Assembly (NCBI GenBank): GCA_032249135.1
Contig: JAVVGL010000020.1
Location: 1 to 35,834, forward strand
DNA length: 35,834 nt
Source: Candidatus Calescibacterium sp.
GTDB lineage: Bacteria; Calescibacteriota; Calescibacteriia; Calescibacteriales; Calescibacteriaceae
Direction of reading: 5' to 3'
Under the pieces are notes generated by a model that was not told the DNA's origin, searched no databases, and saw only the letters and a program-made list of their open reading frames with translations. Numbering within the stretch: position 1 is the stretch's first letter; each line of letters opens with the position of its first letter. Made by a program: the position numbers and the translations under genes. Of this stretch, positions 13,317 to 24,097 are shown one piece after another.

Positions 13317-14192
13317 TTAAGGTTTCTGTTTTGAGAACAAAACAAAAGCCAAAAAGAAAAAAATGACTCCCATCAAGAATAAAGATAGTGCAAAAAATAT
13401 CCACATCATCTCTCCAAAGGAGTAGTATATATAGAGACCAAAAGGTCCTAAAACATCAAGAGTTTGAGAGAAAAAGGAGATTACCGCTAATCTGAAAGTT
13501 TCGGCAGGATTAAGAAGAATAAATAAAATAAAAGCAAAATTTGGAACACGAGCCAAAGATATAAAACTTAAAACTCCAACCTCACTGAAAACAGTAAAAA
13601 AAAAGAGAAAAAAAAGTGCGAAAGAGATAGCTCTCAAACGGCTGAGAGAAGCAACCGATATCAACAATCCCAGAGAAACAAAAACAAAAGAAAACAAAAT
13701 CAGAAAAAACACAATCTTGAAAAACAAAAGAAAATCTCCCTTATCATACTTTAAGATGAAGAAAAAGAGAGGCAAAATTAATATCGGAGGCAATATAATT
13801 CCAGAAAATATTGAGATAAACTTTGACAAGAAAAACTCTATTTTTTTGATTGGGAAAGAAAAAACATATTCTAAAATGAGGTTTTCGCGAGCTGAACTTA
13901 TTGACAAACTTGAAGGCAATAGCGAAAAAGCCGGAACCAAAAGGAATGATATATTTACAAATGAAGCTAAAAATTTCCCAACCCCTGAGAATCCGTAAAT
14001 TCCCTCACGCCAACCCGCCCAACCCAAACCTACCAATACAAAACCAAAAACAACAAAGTAAAACAAAAACCACCTTGAATACAAAACTTCCTTAAAATCA
14101 ATTATAAATAAGCTTGAAAATCTCTCAAAAGAGAACTTACTGCTGTTTGAAGCTAAAAATTTTTCAGAAGATCTGACTTCTTTATTTCCCAT
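13317..14192 (-). CDS. nosY: NosY ABC transporter permease
   Basis: Multi-TM protein with RENLILEYVFSFPI...FLSKF and LLNPAETFRL; last gene of the nosDFL run. Confidence 0.85.
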   Translation of the reverse strand: MGNKEVRSSEKFLASNSSKFSFERFSSLFIIDFKEVLYSRWFLFYFVVFGFVLVGLGWAGWREGIYGFSGVGKFLASFVNISFLLVPAFSLLPSSLSISSARENLILEYVFSFPIKKIEFFLSKFISIFSGIILPPILILPLFFFILKYDKGDFLLFFKIVFFLILFSFVFVSLGLLISVASLSRLRAISFALFFLFFFTVFSEVGVLSFISLARVPNFAFILFILLNPAETFRLAVISFFSQTLDVLGPFGLYIYYSFGEMMWIFFALSLFLMGVIFFFLAFVLFSKQKP

Positions 14193-14207
14193 TTTTTATT
14201 TCAAGCT

Positions 14208-14681
14208 TTACTCCTCATGATGAGTTCCTGCAATCTTTTTTATGAGCTCTTCAAATGGTATGCAATCACCTTTACAATTTTGTTTTTTGAAAGCAACAAA
14301 TCCATAATGCATAGGAGTAGTAAAACCCGAGGAAAAAAGAGCATTTTCAGTATCAAGCCATTCACCAGTTTCAAAATCTGCAACCCAAATCTTTTTAACC
14401 TTCTCTTTTTCTTTGATGTAAGATGAAACAAGACAGCCAATATCATCAAACTTTTTGACTTTTCCGTCAGATGTTATATATTGACCAGAGAATTTTTTTT
14501 CTGTTATGTGCATTCCACAAGAAGAATATACATCACCCGGCAGAATATCAACTGGTCCTGTCCTTTGGGGACACTTACCTTGAACTAAAAGAGTTGAAAA
14601 TAAAAAAAGAAAGAAACCAAAAAAAGTAAGAAAAAACCTTCTGCTATTTCTTTGGATATTTTTATTTTTTCTTTTCATCAT
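14208..14681 (-). CDS. nosL: NosL copper chaperone
   Basis: YSSCGMHI, KFDDIGCL, IWVADF...W, TPMHYGFVAF; nos context. Confidence 0.88.
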   Translation of the reverse strand: MMKRKNKNIQRNSRRFFLTFFGFFLFLFSTLLVQGKCPQRTGPVDILPGDVYSSCGMHITEKKFSGQYITSDGKVKKFDDIGCLVSSYIKEKEKVKKIWVADFETGEWLDTENALFSSGFTTPMHYGFVAFKKQNCKGDCIPFEELIKKIAGTHHEE

Positions 14682-15300
14682 TTTCTACCCTTCCGTTTTT
14701 CATATATATTACTCTTGTTGCAAAAGAAACATCTTGAATTCTGTGAGTAGAAATTAGCAAGGTTGAATTCAAATTTTGCAAAAAGTCAAATAGTTTTTCC
14801 TGAGCTGATGTATCAAGGTGAGAAAAAGGTTCATCAAGCAGAAGTATTTTCGGATTTCCCAAAAAAGCAAAAATCAAAAGAAGTTTTTGTCTCATTCCTC
14901 CCGAGAGTTCATTCATTTTTTTTCTGTATATAGAAGACAAATTGAGCTCAAAAATATCAAGCAGTTTATCAAATTCTGAAAAAGTCGCCCCACGAGATGA
15001 ACAAACAAGGTTTATAACATCTTGAACATGAGCTGACCAGAGAGGATGAACCTGCAGAACATATCCAAGATAATTTTTTATTGACTGAAAATGGTGAGAA
15101 TTCACACTAAAACCTAAAACTTGAATTTCACCTTCAAAGCTTTCAAATCCCATAATGCACCTCAGAAGAGTTGTTTTTCCTGAACCGTTATGCCCAAATA
15201 AAACAACTTTTTCACCTTCAACAATATCAAAAGATACATCATCAAGAACTTTCTCTCCATTAAAGCTTTTCTTCAAATTCTTTATCTTGACTGCAATCAT
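14662..15300 (-). CDS. nosF: NosF ABC transporter ATPase
   Basis: GHNGSGKTT, LSGGMRQKL, LLLDEP, ISTH. ATG at 15300; the frame is open upstream to a TTG at 15366. Confidence 0.88.
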   Translation of the reverse strand: MIAVKIKNLKKSFNGEKVLDDVSFDIVEGEKVVLFGHNGSGKTTLLRCIMGFESFEGEIQVLGFSVNSHHFQSIKNYLGYVLQVHPLWSAHVQDVINLVCSSRGATFSEFDKLLDIFELNLSSIYRKKMNELSGGMRQKLLLIFAFLGNPKILLLDEPFSHLDTSAQEKLFDFLQNLNSTLLISTHRIQDVSFATRVIYMKNGRVENDEKKK

Positions 15301-15362
15301 ACTGCAAAGAAAAAATAAATAACAACTCAGAAATAAAGAATAACTACAAAAAAATAAAATGC

Positions 15363-16712
15363 TCAATGGAAAAACTCAATTTTGTAGTCTTTCAATTTCA
15401 TTTTCCTTTCAGCAAACATATTTTTATTTTTAGGTTCTATTTTTTCCCATCCAAAAAAATTTGGGTTTATTGATGGTCTGATATCAATGAAAGCAGGATC
15501 AGGTTTGAAGAAAGGTAAAATCAAAGAAAGTTGTTCTATGAAAAATTTCAAAGGAGAGATATAAAAGAAACTCAAATTTGGATTATCAGCCAGAACTTTT
15601 AGAAATAAAGATGAATACTCAAAAGGTATATCACCATATCCATCTTTATTCATATCAAAGCCTCTGTAAATATCATAAAAGTTTGAGTACCATAAATTTT
15701 TGTCCTGTGAAACCCCTTGATATTCCGCGATGAATATGTTTGCCCAGAAAGTGTTTTCAGATATGAGGTTAGGATATGCCGGTGGTAAAAAGCTCATGCA
15801 TTTTGTGTTGAAAGCAAAAACATTTTTTCTTATTATATTCCCGTAAGAAACACCTTCAAGAACTTGAGAGTCTTCAAGGTCAGAGTTTATAATTTCACCT
15901 GTAAATTCTGGGGAATTTGCGAGGTAAATTCCTATTGTGTTATCTGCAATAAGATTTTGAGTTATTACGATATAAGATGCATCTTTCAAACCTATTCCAA
16001 TTCCAGTAAGAAATTTTGAGCTTCCAAAAACATTATTTTTCACCAGTATTCTTCGAGAGAACATAATAAAAGCCCCCACAATATTACCGATAAACTCATT
16101 ACCTTCTAAAATATTACCATTACTATACATATAGTGCAACCCATACCTTGAATGAAAAACTTTATTACCTTTTGCCAAAACATCATAAGAATACCAAATG
16201 ACTACATCTCTTACTCCAACAACAGTATTGTTTTCTAAGGTAACAGAACGAGAATACCAAAGACGAATTCCATCTCCTCTCATACTCAAAGGCAAGTCCT
16301 TACCGGAGATGAAATTATCTTTTATAACAACGCCCTGAGAGTTTTTAAGATATATGCCAAAAAGAACATCCTCAATCTTATTACCTTCAATAAAAACTCC
16401 TGATACATTTTCAACCATAATTCCGGAATCTTCTGAAAGAAGGTTTGTTCCAGAATTTCTCAAAGTAAAACCAGAAATTTTACACGGAGCTTTCACAAGA
16501 ACAACATGTCCCTCCCCTTGCCCATCTATAATCGGATAATTTTTCCCTATCAACTCCAAAGGTTTATCTATTACAATTTTACCTTTATAAACTCCACCAT
16601 TTACTATGACACGAGAATTTGGAGGAACTTCTTTCAAAATTGAAAGGTTATTCGCCTTTATCTCAAATACTTGACCGAAAACCGGAAAAACTCCAAAAAA
16701 ATACTCCAACAT
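15363..16712 (-). CDS. nosD: NosD N2O reductase maturation protein (beta-helix)
   Basis: IDKPLELIG...PIIDGQGEG, LFGIYL, RGDGIRLWYS, SRYGLHYMYS, GAFIMFS, GFDMNKDGYGDIPF. Confidence 0.94.
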   Translation of the reverse strand: MLEYFFGVFPVFGQVFEIKANNLSILKEVPPNSRVIVNGGVYKGKIVIDKPLELIGKNYPIIDGQGEGHVVLVKAPCKISGFTLRNSGTNLLSEDSGIMVENVSGVFIEGNKIEDVLFGIYLKNSQGVVIKDNFISGKDLPLSMRGDGIRLWYSRSVTLENNTVVGVRDVVIWYSYDVLAKGNKVFHSRYGLHYMYSNGNILEGNEFIGNIVGAFIMFSRRILVKNNVFGSSKFLTGIGIGLKDASYIVITQNLIADNTIGIYLANSPEFTGEIINSDLEDSQVLEGVSYGNIIRKNVFAFNTKCMSFLPPAYPNLISENTFWANIFIAEYQGVSQDKNLWYSNFYDIYRGFDMNKDGYGDIPFEYSSLFLKVLADNPNLSFFYISPLKFFIEQLSLILPFFKPDPAFIDIRPSINPNFFGWEKIEPKNKNMFAERKMKLKDYKIEFFH

Positions 16713-16816
16713 AATAGATAAGCCGGTTTGGTATTTATCAGAAAACCAAAATAGATATTAGGATAAAAACTGTTAGGAGAAATAAATCCTGAAAACTTTA
16801 ATAGAACAAATCAATC

Positions 16817-16915
16817 AAAAAAGTAAAATATAACTAATAAACGAGATATTTTATTTTGTACTAAATAAGTAGTACTAAATAAGTAAAATGCAAGACAAAA
16901 TTTTGGAATGAAGAA
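16817..16915 (+). repeat. Conserved ~85-100 bp leader shared by both Rpn-family genes (second copy about 35160-35239)
   Basis: AAAAAAGTAAAAT(A)TAACTAATAA(A/G)CGAGATA(T/C)TTTATT...AATAAGTAAAAT(G/T)CAA(G/A)ACAAAATTTTGGAATGAAGAA at both loci. Confidence 0.85.
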
Positions 16916-17882
16916 AAGAAGAAATCATAAAAGGGAAAAAAGAGAATATAAGCACAAAAAAGAGCTGAAAAGGTTTGACCTGATTTTAAAAGAAATTTTC
17001 TCAAAAGCAGTTGGTATAATTTTTTGGTTAGCAGCTGGTCGGAAAATAGAGGGAAAAGCGAAAGTCTTACCGACTGAAATAAGATTTGTTAAATCTTTTT
17101 ACCCTGATATTTTGCTTGAAATCGGTGGAAAAATAATCCACATAGAAATCCAAGTTCAGCAAGACAAAACTTTGCCTGAAAGAATGCTTGACTATTTTTA
17201 TGCTATAAGAAAAAAATATGGGAAAACCCCAACACAGATAGTTTTATTCATAGGCAAAGGAAATCCTCCACCAAGCAAATTTGAACTGAAAGATCAATTT
17301 CAAATGCAAAACTTATATTTCAACTTCGTAGTGTTGGATATGAAAAAAATAGACCCCGATGTTTTCATAAAAAGTGAAAAGCCAGAAGAGGTCATCGTCG
17401 GGATTTTAGCTGGCAAATTCAAAGATAAACCCGAAATAATAAAAAAGGTCAAAGAAAGAATTGTAGAAATTGTGAAAGATGAGAAAGAAATTGCTAAATA
17501 TATAGATAGTGTAAGCTTTTTAGCAAGTTTATTTGATATTGAAATAAAGGTAAAAACTATGCCAATACAAGTTGATATAAGGAAAACCTTTCTTTATAAG
17601 TGGGGAAAAGAAGAAGGTCTGAAAGAAGGAGAAAGAAGAGGACTTGAAAAAGGGAAACAAGAGGGAAAACAAGAAGGCTTGAAGGAGGCAATTTTATTAG
17701 ATGTTCAAATCAAGTTTGGCGAATCAAAGACAAAAGAGGTAAAAACTCTCTTGGAAAAAGTTGACGATTTAAATAGACTCAAAAAAATAAAGAGAAAAAT
17801 AATAGAGGTAAAAACCTGGGATGATTTTATCAAATTTCTCAAAAACTCAAATCCAAAAAATAAAAATTCAAAAGGAAAATAA
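16908..17882 (+). CDS. Rpn/YhgA-like PD-(D/E)XK nuclease family protein, copy 1
   Basis: FDLILKEI, YPDILL...IHIEIQ (D...ExQ), LPERMLDY, QIVLFIG, C-terminal EGLKEG/EGKQEG repeats. Confidence 0.82.
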   Translation: MKKRRNHKREKREYKHKKELKRFDLILKEIFSKAVGIIFWLAAGRKIEGKAKVLPTEIRFVKSFYPDILLEIGGKIIHIEIQVQQDKTLPERMLDYFYAIRKKYGKTPTQIVLFIGKGNPPPSKFELKDQFQMQNLYFNFVVLDMKKIDPDVFIKSEKPEEVIVGILAGKFKDKPEIIKKVKERIVEIVKDEKEIAKYIDSVSFLASLFDIEIKVKTMPIQVDIRKTFLYKWGKEEGLKEGERRGLEKGKQEGKQEGLKEAILLDVQIKFGESKTKEVKTLLEKVDDLNRLKKIKRKIIEVKTWDDFIKFLKNSNPKNKNSKGK

Positions 17883-17975
17883 GTAAGCAATAATTATCAG
17901 TTATATCAGCCTTTCTTTTTTCTTTCTTCTCCGACGATTGGAAAAAGTTAAAAGCAGGGGAAATGTATTAATGTA

Positions 17976-18023
17976 AGAGCAGGTCCCAAGGTGTTTCATT
18001 TTCATGCCCCCGGGACCTGCTTT
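17976..18023. terminator. GC-rich inverted repeat between the convergent nosZ unit and the Rpn gene; probable terminator or RNA stability hairpin
   Basis: AGCAGGTCCC (17978-17987) pairs with GGGACCTGCT (18012-18021), 24-nt loop, about 20 nt after the stop at 18044. Confidence 0.6.
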
Positions 18024-18043
18024 GTTCTAACTTGTATCCTGAT

Positions 18044-18439
18044 TTATTTTAAGCCAGCGGCTCTACCTGCATTGATAGCTTGGGTTGCACATTTTACAAG
18101 AAGTTGCCAAGCCCAATTAGCTGAATGGGAGCACTCAGCCCATTTCCCTTTTGCACATAAGTCCTCTGCCTTTTTGAGCTCTTCTTTCGCAAGAGAAAGC
18201 CAACCCTTTGCAGATTCCCATTCCCCTTTTACCGCTGGGTTCTTTTGAGCTATATTTTCTATTCCACCCTGAACAAGCTCTCCTGCTGTCTTTTCAACAA
18301 GAGCAAGGGTATCTTTGGCGGTTTTCAACCATTTTTCAGCATCCTCACGAGTTTGAGCAAAAACCCCTGAAATATGGAGCGAAAAAGTCAAGAAACAAAG
18401 AATAAGAAAAGTTCTGATCGCTAATTTACTGACCACCAT
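18044..18439 (-). CDS. Secreted helical protein of unknown function co-transcribed with nosZ
   Basis: SD AAGGAGGTG with AGGAGG 9 nt before ATG; Sec signal ending VFA-Q; Ala/Lys/Trp-rich amphipathic helices; three Cys in the mature part; starts 19 nt after the nosZ stop. Confidence 0.85.
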   Translation of the reverse strand: MVVSKLAIRTFLILCFLTFSLHISGVFAQTREDAEKWLKTAKDTLALVEKTAGELVQGGIENIAQKNPAVKGEWESAKGWLSLAKEELKKAEDLCAKGKWAECSHSANWAWQLLVKCATQAINAGRAAGLK

Positions 18440-18458: not shown

Positions 18459-20468
18459 TTATTTTTTGGGTTTCACAATAAGGTATCCTGCCATTTCAAG
18501 GTGTAATGCCGAACAGAATTCAGAGCAGTAGAACGGGAATACACCCGGTTTATCTGCAACGAACTCAACAACTCCTGTTTCACCAGGTTCTATTGAAAGG
18601 TTTATGTTGTATCCGCCAAGAGCGAATCCGTGCGTAGCATCTCTTGCTCTTTCAACATTAGTAATATACATAACTACCTTGTCACCTTGCTCAACCTCAA
18701 TTATTTCCGGTGTAAAGTGGCTACGAATAGCAGTAGCATAAACATAAACAGTTTTTCCTTTCCTCTCTATCTTTTCCTTCCCAAGAGTCGTAGCATATGG
18801 AGATTTGGATTGCTTTATCGGATCCCAACCAACATCAGGATATACTGTCCAAGGTTTGAGTTTATCTGCTTTTATAATTTGAGCATAGTGAGGTTCTCCG
18901 AGAGGAATTGGCATATCATATACAAGCTTCATCTTATCTCCTGATATATCAATAAGTTGGAAGTTCTGCGGGTGAAGAGGTCCAACTGGATTGAACCTAT
19001 CAATTGACCATTTATTAAGAGCAACAACCCATTTTCCATCTGGTGCTACCGTATCTCCTTCGGCAGCTGCTATATGACCTATGTTGTAGTGAACTGGAAG
19101 TTTCTCATAAAGTTTCCACTCTCCGATCTTCCACTTTGCAACAACAGACTCTATAAAAACAGATGTGTAAGCAAAACCTCTGTTATCAAAAACAGTGTGA
19201 AGAGGACCAAGACCTATTGGTACCTGAGCCTCGACTGAATCCTTGAAGGCTATAATTGGAACACCGAACTTGTCTTTACCCTCAAACTTACCTTTTTCTA
19301 TTGCATCTTTTATCTTTTGAATTGAGTAAACCGTTGCGTGAGTGTCAAGCTTACCACCAACAACTATCCATTTACCATCCGGGGAAACATCTACACCGTG
19401 CGGAGATTTTGGTTCAGGTGTGAAAACAAGTATTTTCTCTTTCGCAGCAACATCCAAAGGAATAACTTTTATTTTGAATCCACCTATACCTACCACCTCT
19501 TTTGCTCCACCTCTGGCAACAACCTCCTCAGCTTTTTTCCAGTTGATTATGTGAAGATAATCCATATCATTTTGGGAAGCACCAACTTCAAAGAAAGGAT
19601 TAGGTGAACCCAAAGGTTTTCCGGTAGCCATTTCAGAGTTGAAAGAGTTGCAGAAAGCAAAACCATAGCTTTCAAGTTTTCCAGCATCGCAGAGGTCTTG
19701 CCAGTAAGGTGGAGCTTCAACTGCAAAAGATTTTTCAGGTATTATTCTTCCCGCTTTTCTATCAAAGTACCAGAATGTTATGTAGCCTCTATATTTTTCT
19801 GCATACTCGCTCAGAGGAGCATAACCTCCACCTTGCGGAACAGCATACTGCGAAGGTTCTATTATGTATTCGGAGTTCGGAGTTACAAACGCTGCACCAT
19901 GATTTGAATAACCAAGCGGGTTGCAGACTATCTGCTTGGTTTCAAAGTCACGAAGGTCTATAACTGCAACACGAGAGTTAGCTTTATCTCCTATAAAGAG
20001 GAACTGACCATCGTAGTCACCGTTAGTTTCGGATAATGCAGGGTGGTGAGTGTCAGCCCATGTAAGTTTGGCTCTGAGTGGATCACAGTTTGTTCCCTGA
20101 AGTACCTTTCTGTTCTCTGCATCAAAACCGTATCCTTGCCACGGTTCGGGAGTAAAAACAGCTATATATTTGAGTATTCTCATAGATGGTATTCCGATAA
20201 CTATGACCTGACCTGAGTGTCCGCCGGAGGAGAACATAATGTATTCATCAAGAACACCTGTTGGATGATATGTTTTGAGAGCTGCTTCAACTGCATCCGG
20301 ACTGAGTTGGCGAGCTTTGGCTATTTCAAGAGCTCTATCGTACGGACCTTGAGCTGTAATGTTGCCTAATAACAAGCTGCCTATAAAAAGACCTGCTATA
20401 AACAGGCCTATACCTCCTAATACTTTACTTACTTTTTTATTTTTATTTTTGTACCCATAAAAAGCCAC
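18459..20468 (-). CDS. nosZ: Nitrous oxide reductase, clade II (Sec-dependent); true start ambiguous (see findings)
   Basis: FSSGGHSGQV...IPSMRILKYIAVFTPEPWQGYG; CuZ His motifs DTHH, SNHG, SPHG, GPLH, IGH, EPHY; CuA THGF...CSEFCSALHLEM; no twin-arginine motif and no fused cytochrome c. Confidence 0.97.
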   Translation of the reverse strand: MAFYGYKNKNKKVSKVLGGIGLFIAGLFIGSLLLGNITAQGPYDRALEIAKARQLSPDAVEAALKTYHPTGVLDEYIMFSSGGHSGQVIVIGIPSMRILKYIAVFTPEPWQGYGFDAENRKVLQGTNCDPLRAKLTWADTHHPALSETNGDYDGQFLFIGDKANSRVAVIDLRDFETKQIVCNPLGYSNHGAAFVTPNSEYIIEPSQYAVPQGGGYAPLSEYAEKYRGYITFWYFDRKAGRIIPEKSFAVEAPPYWQDLCDAGKLESYGFAFCNSFNSEMATGKPLGSPNPFFEVGASQNDMDYLHIINWKKAEEVVARGGAKEVVGIGGFKIKVIPLDVAAKEKILVFTPEPKSPHGVDVSPDGKWIVVGGKLDTHATVYSIQKIKDAIEKGKFEGKDKFGVPIIAFKDSVEAQVPIGLGPLHTVFDNRGFAYTSVFIESVVAKWKIGEWKLYEKLPVHYNIGHIAAAEGDTVAPDGKWVVALNKWSIDRFNPVGPLHPQNFQLIDISGDKMKLVYDMPIPLGEPHYAQIIKADKLKPWTVYPDVGWDPIKQSKSPYATTLGKEKIERKGKTVYVYATAIRSHFTPEIIEVEQGDKVVMYITNVERARDATHGFALGGYNINLSIEPGETGVVEFVADKPGVFPFYCSEFCSALHLEMAGYLIVKPKK

Positions 20469-20576
20469 CTCCTTTCTTTTATTTTTTATTTTTTAAAGAC
20501 ATTTTTCCTCTAAAAAATCTAAAATCTCGCAAAAAAACGAATTTCAAAAACCAATCAATAAAAAACTCCAAATCAA

Positions 20577-21313
20577 CTAACCTTTTTGCTGGCGCAAAAT
20601 CAAAGCTTTTTCTTTCATTCCAGCCCTTTCAAACTCCTCGGGTTTCCCTGGCCACTTCCACAGATTTGGGAACAAAACAGAACATTTTTCTTTCACAGGA
20701 CATGCATTGCATACTCCAAGACGCAAAACAAAAGCCAAAAATACAAAAACAAATCCCAAGATAGCAAGATAAAATCCCAACCCAAAAGTTGCATAAGTTT
20801 TAAATTGAGCAACAATCCCCTCACCAAAAATTTTTGGAGTAAACGGAGCTATTTTTATAGGAGCATTAGGATCAAGTTCGTGACCGAACTTATACATCCA
20901 AAAGAAAAGGTCCCCGATAAAGATAAGAGGAAAGGCAAGCGAGGGTAAAACAAAAAGGATTGCCCCTTTTCTTCCGGAAAAGAGGAAAAACAAAGAAATA
21001 AGTGAAAGAACAACAAGACCAAATAAAGCAATTTTCTTTCAAATTGAGCGGCTTCTTCCATTTTTTTCATACCTATATAATGATTGAGTATATCAAGTTC
21101 GGAAACATCTCCTTTTAGTTTTGAAAGGTAAACTTGAACCCTCAGCCCCTGCGGGTACTGAGGAGCGACAAGGGTAAATTTCCAGTAAGGGAAAAAGTAA
21201 GAAGATAAAATAAGAGCAGCAGATAAAATCGCAAACAAAGCAACCAAGATTCTTCTATTTCTCTGAATCATCGGTCCCGGGATCAATCTTTCAATTTTTT
21301 CTAAAACTCCCAT
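20577..21313 (-). pseudogene. nosB: NosB membrane protein split by a one-base frameshift at 21032-21035 (245 aa if repaired)
   Basis: PYWKFTLVAPQYPQGL...LNHYIGM in frame 1 and FFWMYKFGHELDPNAPIKIAPFTPKIFG in frame 2; one extra A gives ERKIALFGLVVLSLISLFFLFSGRKG; SD AGGAGG 9 nt before ATG 21313. Confidence 0.85.
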
Positions 21314-21341
21314 TTCCAATCACCTCCTCTTTCAAAAAATA

Positions 21342-21358: not shown

Positions 21359-21527
21359 CTTTTGCTCCCGTTTTTTGGATTTTTTTTCATTTCTTCATTT
21401 TTTAATTTAGCCCGTTTTTTCATAGAGTCATTTTTTCAGCTATTTATGAGCGAAAGAAAAAGTCAAATCTATGGAGATATAATATTGAATTTGATTAAAA
21501 GAACAGGATAAAAATAAGGGACGAATT

Positions 21528-22300: not shown

Positions 22301-24097
22301 TTGAGGGTTAAAATTAAAATGATGAGAATGAAAATCATTATCAATTTCTCTTTGGCACTCCTTCTCACTTTAGCTCAAAAATCTTTCGCAGATTCCTCAA
22401 GACTTTTTATGCTCGCAAGCTATATAGCATCCGACTACCAGAACGCAGTAAAGGATGGAAAAGTCATTTCAGATTTTGAATACTCTGAAATGAAAGAATT
22501 CTGCTCAGAAATTGTTTCACTCGTTCAGGGAACAGAAGTTGAAGATGTAGCCTCGGAGCTCTGTGAGGCAATAGAAAATAAAGAGGATGTAAAAGTAGTA
22601 AGACAACTTGCAAATAAAATAAGTGAATTTGCTTTAAAAAAAGGAGACCTGAGACCTAACTTTATACCTGATTTCAAGCTCGGAGAAAAAATTTATAAAT
22701 TAAATTGTGCCTCTTGTCACGGCGAAAAAGGTGAAGGATATAAGGTTGAATTCCAAGATTCCCCTCCACCATCTCCTCTGACATCACCAGATATATCTCC
22801 TGTTAAAGTTTTCACAATAACGAAATTCGGTATTGATGGAACTCATATGACACCATTTGAGATGTCAGATAAAGAAAGATGGTCCCTTTCTTTCTTCGTA
22901 TCTGCTATGAGATATCAAGATATCAAAATTGAAAACAAAGAAAAAGAAAACGACTTTGATGATTTCTCATTACTCTTTCAGCTCTCACATCTTTCAAATT
23001 CTGAACTTGAAAATAAATTTGGTTTTGAGAAAGCAGGAAAGTTGAGGTTATCGGTTTTCTATCTTGATGAGTTAGATGTTTTCTCTTCGGGATTAAAAAA
23101 TGTTATCCGTTTTCTTGATGAAGGTAAAACTTCTGAGGCAAAAGATACATTAGATTTAGCTTATTTTATATTTGAGGGTGTAGAAAGTAAAATTGCGATA
23201 AGAGATTTTTCATCGGTCAAAAAAATTGAGATTCTTTCAAGATCTGCTCACACAAAAATAAAGGAGGGAAAAATTGAAGAAGCCAAAAAAAATATAAATG
23301 AAATTTTATCGGCGGTGGATAAAATAAAGGGAAGGGGAGATGTAGGTGAAGTTTTTTCTGCCTTTGTTATTGTTTTCAGGGAGGGTTTTGAGGCTATTTT
23401 GATAATTTCTGCTATTTTGGGAATAGTCTCTATTACTCGGGCGAGTAGAACGCCAGTTTATCTTGGTATTGTATTAGGAATTATTTTCGGAATTTTGCTA
23501 TGGATTATTTTAGGTAATGTAGTTTTGATTAATCCTGAATTTATGGAGGGGTTTTTGACTTTGGTAGCAGTTTTTGTTATACTTTATGTGAGTTTCTGGC
23601 TCCTTGAATATTCAAGGCGGGAAAAAATAAGGCAATTTATTGAGAGGACAAAAAGTTATGCAAATTTGAAAAACTATACTGCTTTATTTTTACTATCTTT
23701 TTTTGCTGTTTCAAGGGAGGCGGGAGAAGCAGCACTTTTTCTCAGAGCTCTTGGTGATGTTCAATCTGCGTTTTATGGAATAATTTTTGGTTCAGCTTCT
23801 CTTTCTATTGTTGCATTTTTAATTTATTTTTTGAGAATAAAACTTGAACCCCGAATATTCTTTATTGTAACTAATATCATTTTGAATTTGGTAGCGGTTG
23901 CTCTTTTGGGTAAAGCTATTGCTGAATTTCAAGAAGCAGGCATTATACCTATAACTTTTATCAACATACCCTCTCTTGACTTTTTCGGTATTTTCCCAAC
24001 TTTACAAACAATTATTCCACAGATATTTTTATTCTTTTTCTTACTCTCAAGTACATTCTACTATCTTATTGTGAAGCACAAAGTAGCCTCTCAATAA
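22301..24097 (+). CDS. Cytochrome c / FTR1-family iron permease (PbrT/EfeU-like)
   Basis: Signal peptide, YIASDYQNAV...EYSEM, heme motif CASCH, GIDGTHM, REGFE and REAGE (RExxE) in the TM domain; real start probably an ATG at 22319-22328. Confidence 0.9.
   Translation: MRVKIKMMRMKIIINFSLALLLTLAQKSFADSSRLFMLASYIASDYQNAVKDGKVISDFEYSEMKEFCSEIVSLVQGTEVEDVASELCEAIENKEDVKVVRQLANKISEFALKKGDLRPNFIPDFKLGEKIYKLNCASCHGEKGEGYKVEFQDSPPPSPLTSPDISPVKVFTITKFGIDGTHMTPFEMSDKERWSLSFFVSAMRYQDIKIENKEKENDFDDFSLLFQLSHLSNSELENKFGFEKAGKLRLSVFYLDELDVFSSGLKNVIRFLDEGKTSEAKDTLDLAYFIFEGVESKIAIRDFSSVKKIEILSRSAHTKIKEGKIEEAKKNINEILSAVDKIKGRGDVGEVFSAFVIVFREGFEAILIISAILGIVSITRASRTPVYLGIVLGIIFGILLWIILGNVVLINPEFMEGFLTLVAVFVILYVSFWLLEYSRREKIRQFIERTKSYANLKNYTALFLLSFFAVSREAGEAALFLRALGDVQSAFYGIIFGSASLSIVAFLIYFLRIKLEPRIFFIVTNIILNLVAVALLGKAIAEFQEAGIIPITFINIPSLDFFGIFPTLQTIIPQIFLFFFLLSSTFYYLIVKHKVASQ

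Follow-up and report, generated by a model that had tools for sequence, protein, structure and literature searches.

In one hot-spring strain lineage of Candidatus Calescibacterium sp., the gene for nitrous-oxide (N2O) reductase, nosZ, has its expected initiation codon out of frame with the rest of the gene, which we regard as the probable outcome of a recent mutation that inactivates the nos cluster or strongly attenuates it, leaving incipient pseudogenes, and not as a programmed translational gate. The lineage is represented by a stretch of 35,834 nucleotides (nt), hereafter the window, which is contig 20 (JAVVGL010000020.1, positions 1 to 35,834 of the forward strand) of a draft genome (GCA_032249135.1) with 51 contigs, 87% completeness and a G+C content of 34%. 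A previous, sequence-only reading of the window had noticed that an ATG led by a Shine-Dalgarno (SD) sequence is joined to nosZ through an in-phase A_AAA_AAG heptamer, and had put programmed recoding in its headline, with phase variation, a real 1-nt deletion and a homopolymer assembly error as further options. One base has been lost from the run of Lys codons at the start of nosZ (AAAAAAAG to AAAAAAG or AAAAAAGG to AAAAAAG). The ancestral SD-led ATG now runs into a stop after nine codons, which leaves the body of nosZ without a properly placed start, and on the reading that we favour A_AAA_AAG is ordinary Lys-Lys coding sequence of the signal-peptide N-region and not an evolved signal. Mononucleotide runs are where replication slippage makes one-base insertions or deletions (indels), and since such a run is both prone to indels and able to re-pair tRNAs, mutation and slippery motif would coincide trivially. 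The same lineage carries a second one-base deletion, in the adjacent, conserved membrane-protein gene of the nos cluster. We infer that little or no NosZ is made by strains with this genotype.

The start region of nosZ is organised as the sequence-only reading had described it. On the minus strand, the leader reads AAGGAGGTG (20474-20466), followed by 7 bases and then by the ATG (20458-20456). The short open reading frame (ORF) opened by this ATG reads ATG GGT ACA AAA ATA AAA ATA AAA AAG TAA, its TAA (20431-20429) coming directly after the heptamer (20438-20432), which lies in the zero frame of the ATG and matches the pattern X_XXY_YYZ. The body of nosZ is one base out of phase with this ATG. 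The GTG at 20468-20466, correctly placed inside the SD by the earlier description, forms the final three bases of the SD and is the only in-frame start codon of the 669-amino-acid nosZ ORF (18459-20468).

Translation of nosZ could in principle start at this GTG, giving MAFYGYKNKNKKVSK..., with a Lys-rich N-region and a still usable Sec signal peptide, and it is in this GTG-start form that public databases list the protein (P0121). We consider such a start very unlikely, because the GTG has zero spacing to GGAG and because, in the in-frame strains described below, the SD-embedded GTG is out of frame with nosZ. Moreover, AGGAGGTG followed 7 nt later by an ATG (AGGAGG-N9-ATG) also precedes three other minus-strand genes of the window (at 21313, 18439 and 5521, as had been pointed out before), and these genes start at the ATG in spite of the embedded GTG. 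Across the genome, the commonest start is an ATG placed 9 nt after GGAGG (39 of 85 GGAGGTG sites with a correctly spaced start). A ribosome docked on an SD with such spacing puts the ATG, not the GTG, in its P site. The ATG at 20458, having the modal spacing, would therefore be the start site for a ribosome docked on AAGGAGGTG. The class of 24 genome sites at which an SD-embedded GTG alone opens a long ORF was dropped as a test of GTG starts, since it consists mostly of internal Glu-Val codons.

Comparison of the nosZ 5' ends of relatives, a check that had been proposed together with the frameshift idea, gave the outcome that had been named in advance as refuting the idea: close relatives have an additional base, which puts the ATG in frame. 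We compared five related genomes with a nosZ match (three of the same genus and two of the same family) and scanned metagenome contigs for an exact 32-nt pattern starting 9 nt downstream of the heptamer, which yielded nine loci, seven from the same species and two from a sister species. The SD-led ATG is in frame with nosZ in 5/5 related genomes, in three sister-species sequences and in 4/7 same-species contigs, so that a conserved out-of-frame arrangement was not found. Three of these four contigs (L018, L021 and L023) carry an A6GG allele (AAAAAAGG), which is also that of the sister species, and the fourth (L016) carries an A7G allele (AAAAAAAG). In both forms the ATG runs straight into nosZ and encodes MGTKIKIKKVSKVLGG..., the N-terminus of the L021 ORF, of P0001 and of others, which is identical to what a -1 slip at the heptamer would produce from the window. 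The short allele, AAAAAAG (A6G), is found in the window and in L017, L019 and L022, of which L017 and L019 show no difference from the window over 4360 and 2455 nt, respectively, and are possibly not independent of it. At the protein level, where our statements rest on 15 listed members of a NosZ cluster of 87, six of the seven distinct full-length proteins of the same species start with MGTKIKIKK and only the window's own starts with MAFYGYK.

These comparisons also indicate in which direction the change went. The closest related genome (L002) reads ATG GTA AAA ATA AAA AAG GTA AGT AAG GTA TTA GGA GGT, and relative to it the window is one base short directly after the A-run. In L002 and in L004, A_AAA_AAG stands in phase as plain Lys-Lys codons, which argues that the heptamer is ancestral coding sequence of the charged N-region of the signal peptide and did not arise with the frameshift. 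A tree of the first 435 nosZ codons joins the short allele to the A7G strain with support of 82/98, and both lie within a species whose other members carry A6GG. The out-of-frame state is therefore derived, restricted to one lineage and, as in a pseudogene, absent from close relatives. A plausible path would be a synonymous change of AAG to AAA, creating a seven-A run from which one A was then lost, although parsimony does not favour it over other paths of two steps.

The missing base is real. An error of assembly or sequencing might have been suspected in the homopolymer of a metagenome-assembled genome of draft quality, the site being a mononucleotide run, but this explanation is effectively refuted, and the option of a real 1-nt deletion correspondingly supported, by the recurrence of the short allele in independent assemblies and by its ties to a strain haplotype. 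Whole-locus comparison relied on local alignments, global ones being informative only within the syntenic block from 21628 to ~17950. The short-allele contig L022 is a distinct haplotype, differing from the window by 16 single-nucleotide polymorphisms (SNPs) and one indel, all at 21607-20671, and it bears the same record prefix as L023, which is in frame. The short allele always co-occurs with the same linked variants, both SNPs and the second specific deletion described below. The region is present in 20 sequencing runs from 17 studies, none of the runs being recorded as RNA; for four of these (X1, X2, X4 and X6) we used assembled Logan contigs, not raw reads, and the lengths over 20424-20495 are inferred from record coordinates only. 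X1 (depth 348) and X2 (depth 62) each have a single spanning contig with 72 nt at 20424-20495, as in the window, while a strain in X6, ~98% identical to the window, has 73 nt, with one extra base somewhere within this interval. In X4, both flanking contigs end at ~20432, and a loose end at 20512 shows the leader of an in-frame strain type; the break would thus fit a mixture of strains.

No difference separates the two short-allele haplotypes over 3.1 kb, comprising the leader, nosZ and a small ORF, yet the adjoining 0.94 kb contains the 16 SNPs, many of which are common to other strains. This pattern suggests a putative recombination breakpoint near 20670 between the window haplotype and L022. 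As the two are identical from 20670 to 17584 and across nosZ, they offer no polymorphism with which to gauge selection after the break.

The same data bear on phase variation, in which the A-run would act as a contingency tract switching nosZ by slipped-strand mispairing. Three alleles do occur at one spot among 8 same-species sequences, the X4 contigs both end near 20432, as expected of a polymorphism there, and nearby intergenic A/T runs differ in length between strains. Nevertheless, one indel and one G/A substitution account for all three alleles, each of which is tied to its own linked variants. X1 and X2, with one dominant strain each, give a single spanning contig of window length, and since X4 holds a leader of in-frame type, strain mixture explains its break. 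A run of six to seven bases is, in addition, shorter than classical contingency tracts. Phase variation is thus highly improbable, and it gains no positive support from alleles that follow strain background. As for the A/T runs, length differences of 1-5 nt between strains are seen at six places of the nosZ leader (20476-20565) and near 21414, upstream of the membrane-protein gene. In this population, homopolymer indels are thus common at places where they do no harm.

The membrane-protein gene adjoining nosZ upstream is also broken in the short-allele lineage. In 6/6 relatives' loci (L002-L006 and L015, which stand for all five related genomes having the locus), this gene gives one in-frame match immediately 5' of nosZ, with 50-93% identity. 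The encoded protein of 245 amino acids has 292 homologues in the protein collection, for which the source names disagree ("cytochrome C," "copper chaperone NosL," "hypothetical"), and has no match in Pfam or NCBIfam; the label nosB, which it had been given in the sequence-only reading, is a provisional one. All four short-allele sequences (the window, L017, L019 and L022) are without one A at 21035-21032 (GAAAGAAAAATTGC to GAAAGAAAATTGC), which splits the gene into window ORFs 20855-21319 and 20577-20993, in different frames. The base is kept in L016, L018, L021 and L023, and the gene is intact there and in the sister species, being a single ORF in L016, L018, L021 and L015. The window haplotype has three unique substitutions in this gene, two of which lie 3' of the break and change the protein. 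The first is F to I at 20999. The second, C to F at 20671, removes the fourth Cys of a C-x-x-C...C...C motif that is kept in 22/22 motif-bearing homologues (27 aligned). The pathway therefore bears the further lesions that are expected of decay, namely the second deletion and the Cys-to-Phe change, while nosZ itself has none.

Frame breaks are rare elsewhere. Over the ~8 kb alignable with in-frame strains, the remaining indels are all in intergenic A/T runs, and a background screen, in which this genome was compared with 157 orthologous ORFs taken from 260 kb of sister-species sequence, gave five split matches with one true frameshift among them. The four other split matches were set aside as artefacts (two antisense ORFs in rRNA, one query fusing neighbouring genes and one same-frame repeat). 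Against this background, chance would not be expected to break two neighbouring genes with linked functions in a single lineage. The paired frame breaks point to a relaxation of the selection that maintains N2O reduction, or else to selection in favour of losing it. The true frameshift of the screen lies in a methyltransferase-like gene (G000 contig C1, ~68,660-68,690), which, close to its 3' end and outside any simple homopolymer, has one base fewer, with the last ~30 residues altered.

Programmed recoding found no support, the arrangement being strain-specific, without a stimulator, in an organism whose tRNA-Lys set is unlike that of Escherichia coli, and next door to a second frameshift. 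The 1323 long ORFs of the genome (564,320 codons) contain 513 in-phase copies of A_AAA_AAG, a number that shows no depletion against the expectation from codon pairs. By itself, then, the heptamer is no more than chance expectation, and the fact that it is not avoided argues against high intrinsic slippage in this organism. No stimulatory fold was detected in the 92 nt after the heptamer when compared with shuffles (z = -0.19). The only hairpin seen (20409-20389) starts ~23 nt after the heptamer, whereas a downstream stimulatory structure would lie ~5-9 nt away, and its sequence is common to in-frame strains. Between the end of the SD and the heptamer there are 27 nt, against the ~10 nt of an internal SD stimulator. 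A scan of 20150-20750 against Rfam (E up to 10) returned five matches of 11-17 bits, which we take as chance given gathering scores of 50-100, and a literature search found no published recoding of nosZ. Among 45 tRNAs, ARAGORN identified one tRNA-Lys(CUU) and one tRNA-Lys(UUU), so that tRNA-Lys(UUU) is not the sole lysine tRNA. According to PMC5009743, A_AAA_AAG is slippery in E. coli because the single tRNA-Lys of that species pairs weakly with AAG, and an organism with a dedicated AAG reader, such as Thermus thermophilus, is expected to pair AAG tightly and to shift poorly.

Several observations weigh against a recent loss of function. The body of nosZ is free of any further lesion, and nosD, nosF, nosL and a nosY-like gene are all intact. 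The nosZ changes specific to the short-allele lineage, read with the codon table, are 15 synonymous and 2 conservative non-synonymous ones, although a very recent mutation fits them equally. The lineage is also common, four runs from four studies holding 96-100% of sampled words. A -1 slip, or a single A added by RNA polymerase, would restore the exact wild-type preprotein, and slippage is known from E. coli at A_AAA_AAG where a stop comes next. Finally, one-base deletions near the start of a gene were rescued to 25-60% at C-AAA-AAA in an E. coli overexpression vector, as reported in PMC1851650.

The explanation that draws on these points is a compensated indel, in which a -1 slip on A_AAA_AAG with UAA in the A site, or an A added by RNA polymerase, would yield a useful, probably reduced amount of pre-NosZ. 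It can appeal to a shifted product that equals the protein of the in-frame alleles, to a heptamer that is in phase with a stop directly after it, to intact nosZ and nosDFLY with mostly synonymous substitutions, and to the abundance and wide spread of the lineage. Against it stand the lack of any stimulator by fold, hairpin or Rfam, the presence of tRNA-Lys(CUU), and the low intrinsic slippage for which the 513 in-phase heptamers argue. Six A's are, moreover, short for transcriptional slippage. The deletion in the upstream gene lies at a much weaker A_AAA site, and a conserved Cys has since been lost there, which suggests that the frame is not rescued. From published work, the strong E. coli rescue at C-AAA-AAA near a start (PMC1851650) and the recognition of low-level frameshifting after indels as a class of its own (PMC5009743) speak for compensation, while PMC4066793 gives stimulator-free E. 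coli heptamers only 2- to 10-fold over a 0.055% background. On balance, we regard compensation that yields useful NosZ as rather unlikely.

A related scenario, which we hold to be unlikely, is that the short allele is a naturally fixed attenuator, acting through unprogrammed -1 slippage at A_AAA_AAG|UAA or through stuttering of RNA polymerase at high temperature. If this were true, a hot-spring lineage of wide distribution would produce N2O reductase in no more than very small amounts from an otherwise perfectly preserved gene, a respiratory "pseudo-pseudogene." Under the favoured reading of a recent loss, too, it is possible that low-level, unprogrammed -1 slippage leaks some NosZ.

The nosZ site shares with the -1 frameshift sites of E. 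coli dnaX and of IS3/IS911-type elements an identical in-phase heptamer, at which re-pairing of tRNA-Lys gives a defined trans-frame product. However, those sites are conserved, have an SD ~10 nt upstream and/or a stem-loop or pseudoknot downstream, and are read by a single tRNA-Lys(UUU), whereas the nosZ site is strain-specific, no stimulator was found for it, and the genome also has tRNA-Lys(CUU). Another parallel is low-level compensatory frameshifting that follows a "problem" or "savior" indel, examples being the G-run indels of herpesvirus thymidine kinase (PMC5009743) and the C-AAA-AAA rescue of one-base deletions in pDEST17 (PMC1851650). These have in common with nosZ a one-base indel in a mononucleotide run near the 5' end, perfect re-pairing and a rescued product that equals the wild type, but rescue is demonstrated in the thymidine kinase and pDEST17 systems and is possible in principle only in nosZ. 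Phase-variable contingency genes likewise have a mononucleotide run in their first codons that sets the frame. In nosZ, by contrast, none was seen varying within a haplotype, the tract is short and the gene is a respiratory, not a surface, gene. With lineage-specific pseudogenes caused by homopolymer indels, nosZ shares a derived, haplotype-linked break, a second break in a linked neighbour and the loss of a conserved residue after the break. The body of nosZ is, however, without further lesions yet, and the decay, if it is decay, would be very recent.

Metagenome counts of nosZ are widely used as a proxy for the N2O-consuming capacity of a community. In the window, the NosZ of 669 amino acids looks intact in gene calls and in public databases, although its SD-led start is out of frame and its neighbour is broken. 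Conspecific strains that share a set of hot springs may therefore differ in N2O reduction without any sign of it in the annotation. A caution for the detection of recoding also follows. Where a genome is AT-rich and lysine-rich, nearly every one-base indel that hits a run of A's will fall on a "classic slippery heptamer," so that the coincidence alone is no evidence of programmed recoding.

Features of the nosZ region of the window and of the adjoining nos genes
Feature	Position	Strand	Remark
SD AAGGAGGTG of nosZ	20466..20474	-	GTG opening the 669-amino-acid ORF forms part of it
Nine-codon ORF (MGTKIKIKK, stop) led by the SD-spaced ATG	20429..20458	-	what is left of the original nosZ start, shifted out of frame
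A_AAA_AAG heptamer, also site of the one-base loss	20432..20438	-	in phase with ATG 20458
Small hairpin in the signal-peptide coding region	20389..20409	-	no credible stimulator
nosZ body, Sec-dependent (clade II type)	18459..20431	-	otherwise intact; TIGR04246, Pfam
Membrane-protein gene (245 amino acids) adjoining nosZ upstream	20577..21313	-	divided between two frames in the window
Second one-base deletion, A5 to A4	21032..21035	-	only in the short-allele lineage
TTC (Phe) codon replacing the fourth Cys of the C-x-x-C...C...C motif	20670..20672	-	window haplotype only
nosD, nosF, nosL, nosY-like permease	13317..16712	-	Pfam; ORFs intact

The protein that the in-frame strains encode is a Sec-dependent NosZ. 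The L021 protein scores 866.5 bits against TIGR04246 (Sec-dependent nitrous-oxide reductase; cut-off 625) and 422 bits against the model for the twin-arginine-translocation type (cut-off 625), and Pfam recognises nos_propeller and cupredoxin domains. The body of nosZ in the window has 654 stop-free codons, the same as in the in-frame strains. Read by eye, MGTKIKIKKVSKVLGGIGLFIAGLFIGSLLLGNITAQG has a Lys-rich N-region, a hydrophobic core and A-Q-G, with no RR, and thus appears to be a Sec-type signal peptide lacking the twin-arginine motif. Farther downstream, the block of nosD, nosF, nosL and the nosY-like gene differs from that of L021 by intergenic indels only.

The surroundings of nosZ show some variation between strains. 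Directly after nosZ, an ORF of 131 amino acids (18044-18439, minus strand) has its own AGGAGGTGA-ATG start and a signal-peptide-like N-terminus; it is kept in L021, and its sole match, to HEPN, is subthreshold (19 bits vs. 22). Between this ORF and nosD, ~1.3 kb (16722-18038) are absent from L021 and from the sister species L015. This segment contains an ORF of 324 amino acids (16908-17882, plus strand) with a subthreshold match to the Rpn family of recombination-promoting nucleases/putative transposases (34.5 bits vs. 52). At this site, L018 and L023 carry insertions of their own, which are related without being the same, that of L023 adding 1.8 kb that encode a repeat-rich secreted protein. 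On the other side, divergent from the nos cluster, 22301-24097 (plus strand) encodes a protein of 598 amino acids with an N-terminal cytochrome c domain and an FTR1-type iron permease domain.

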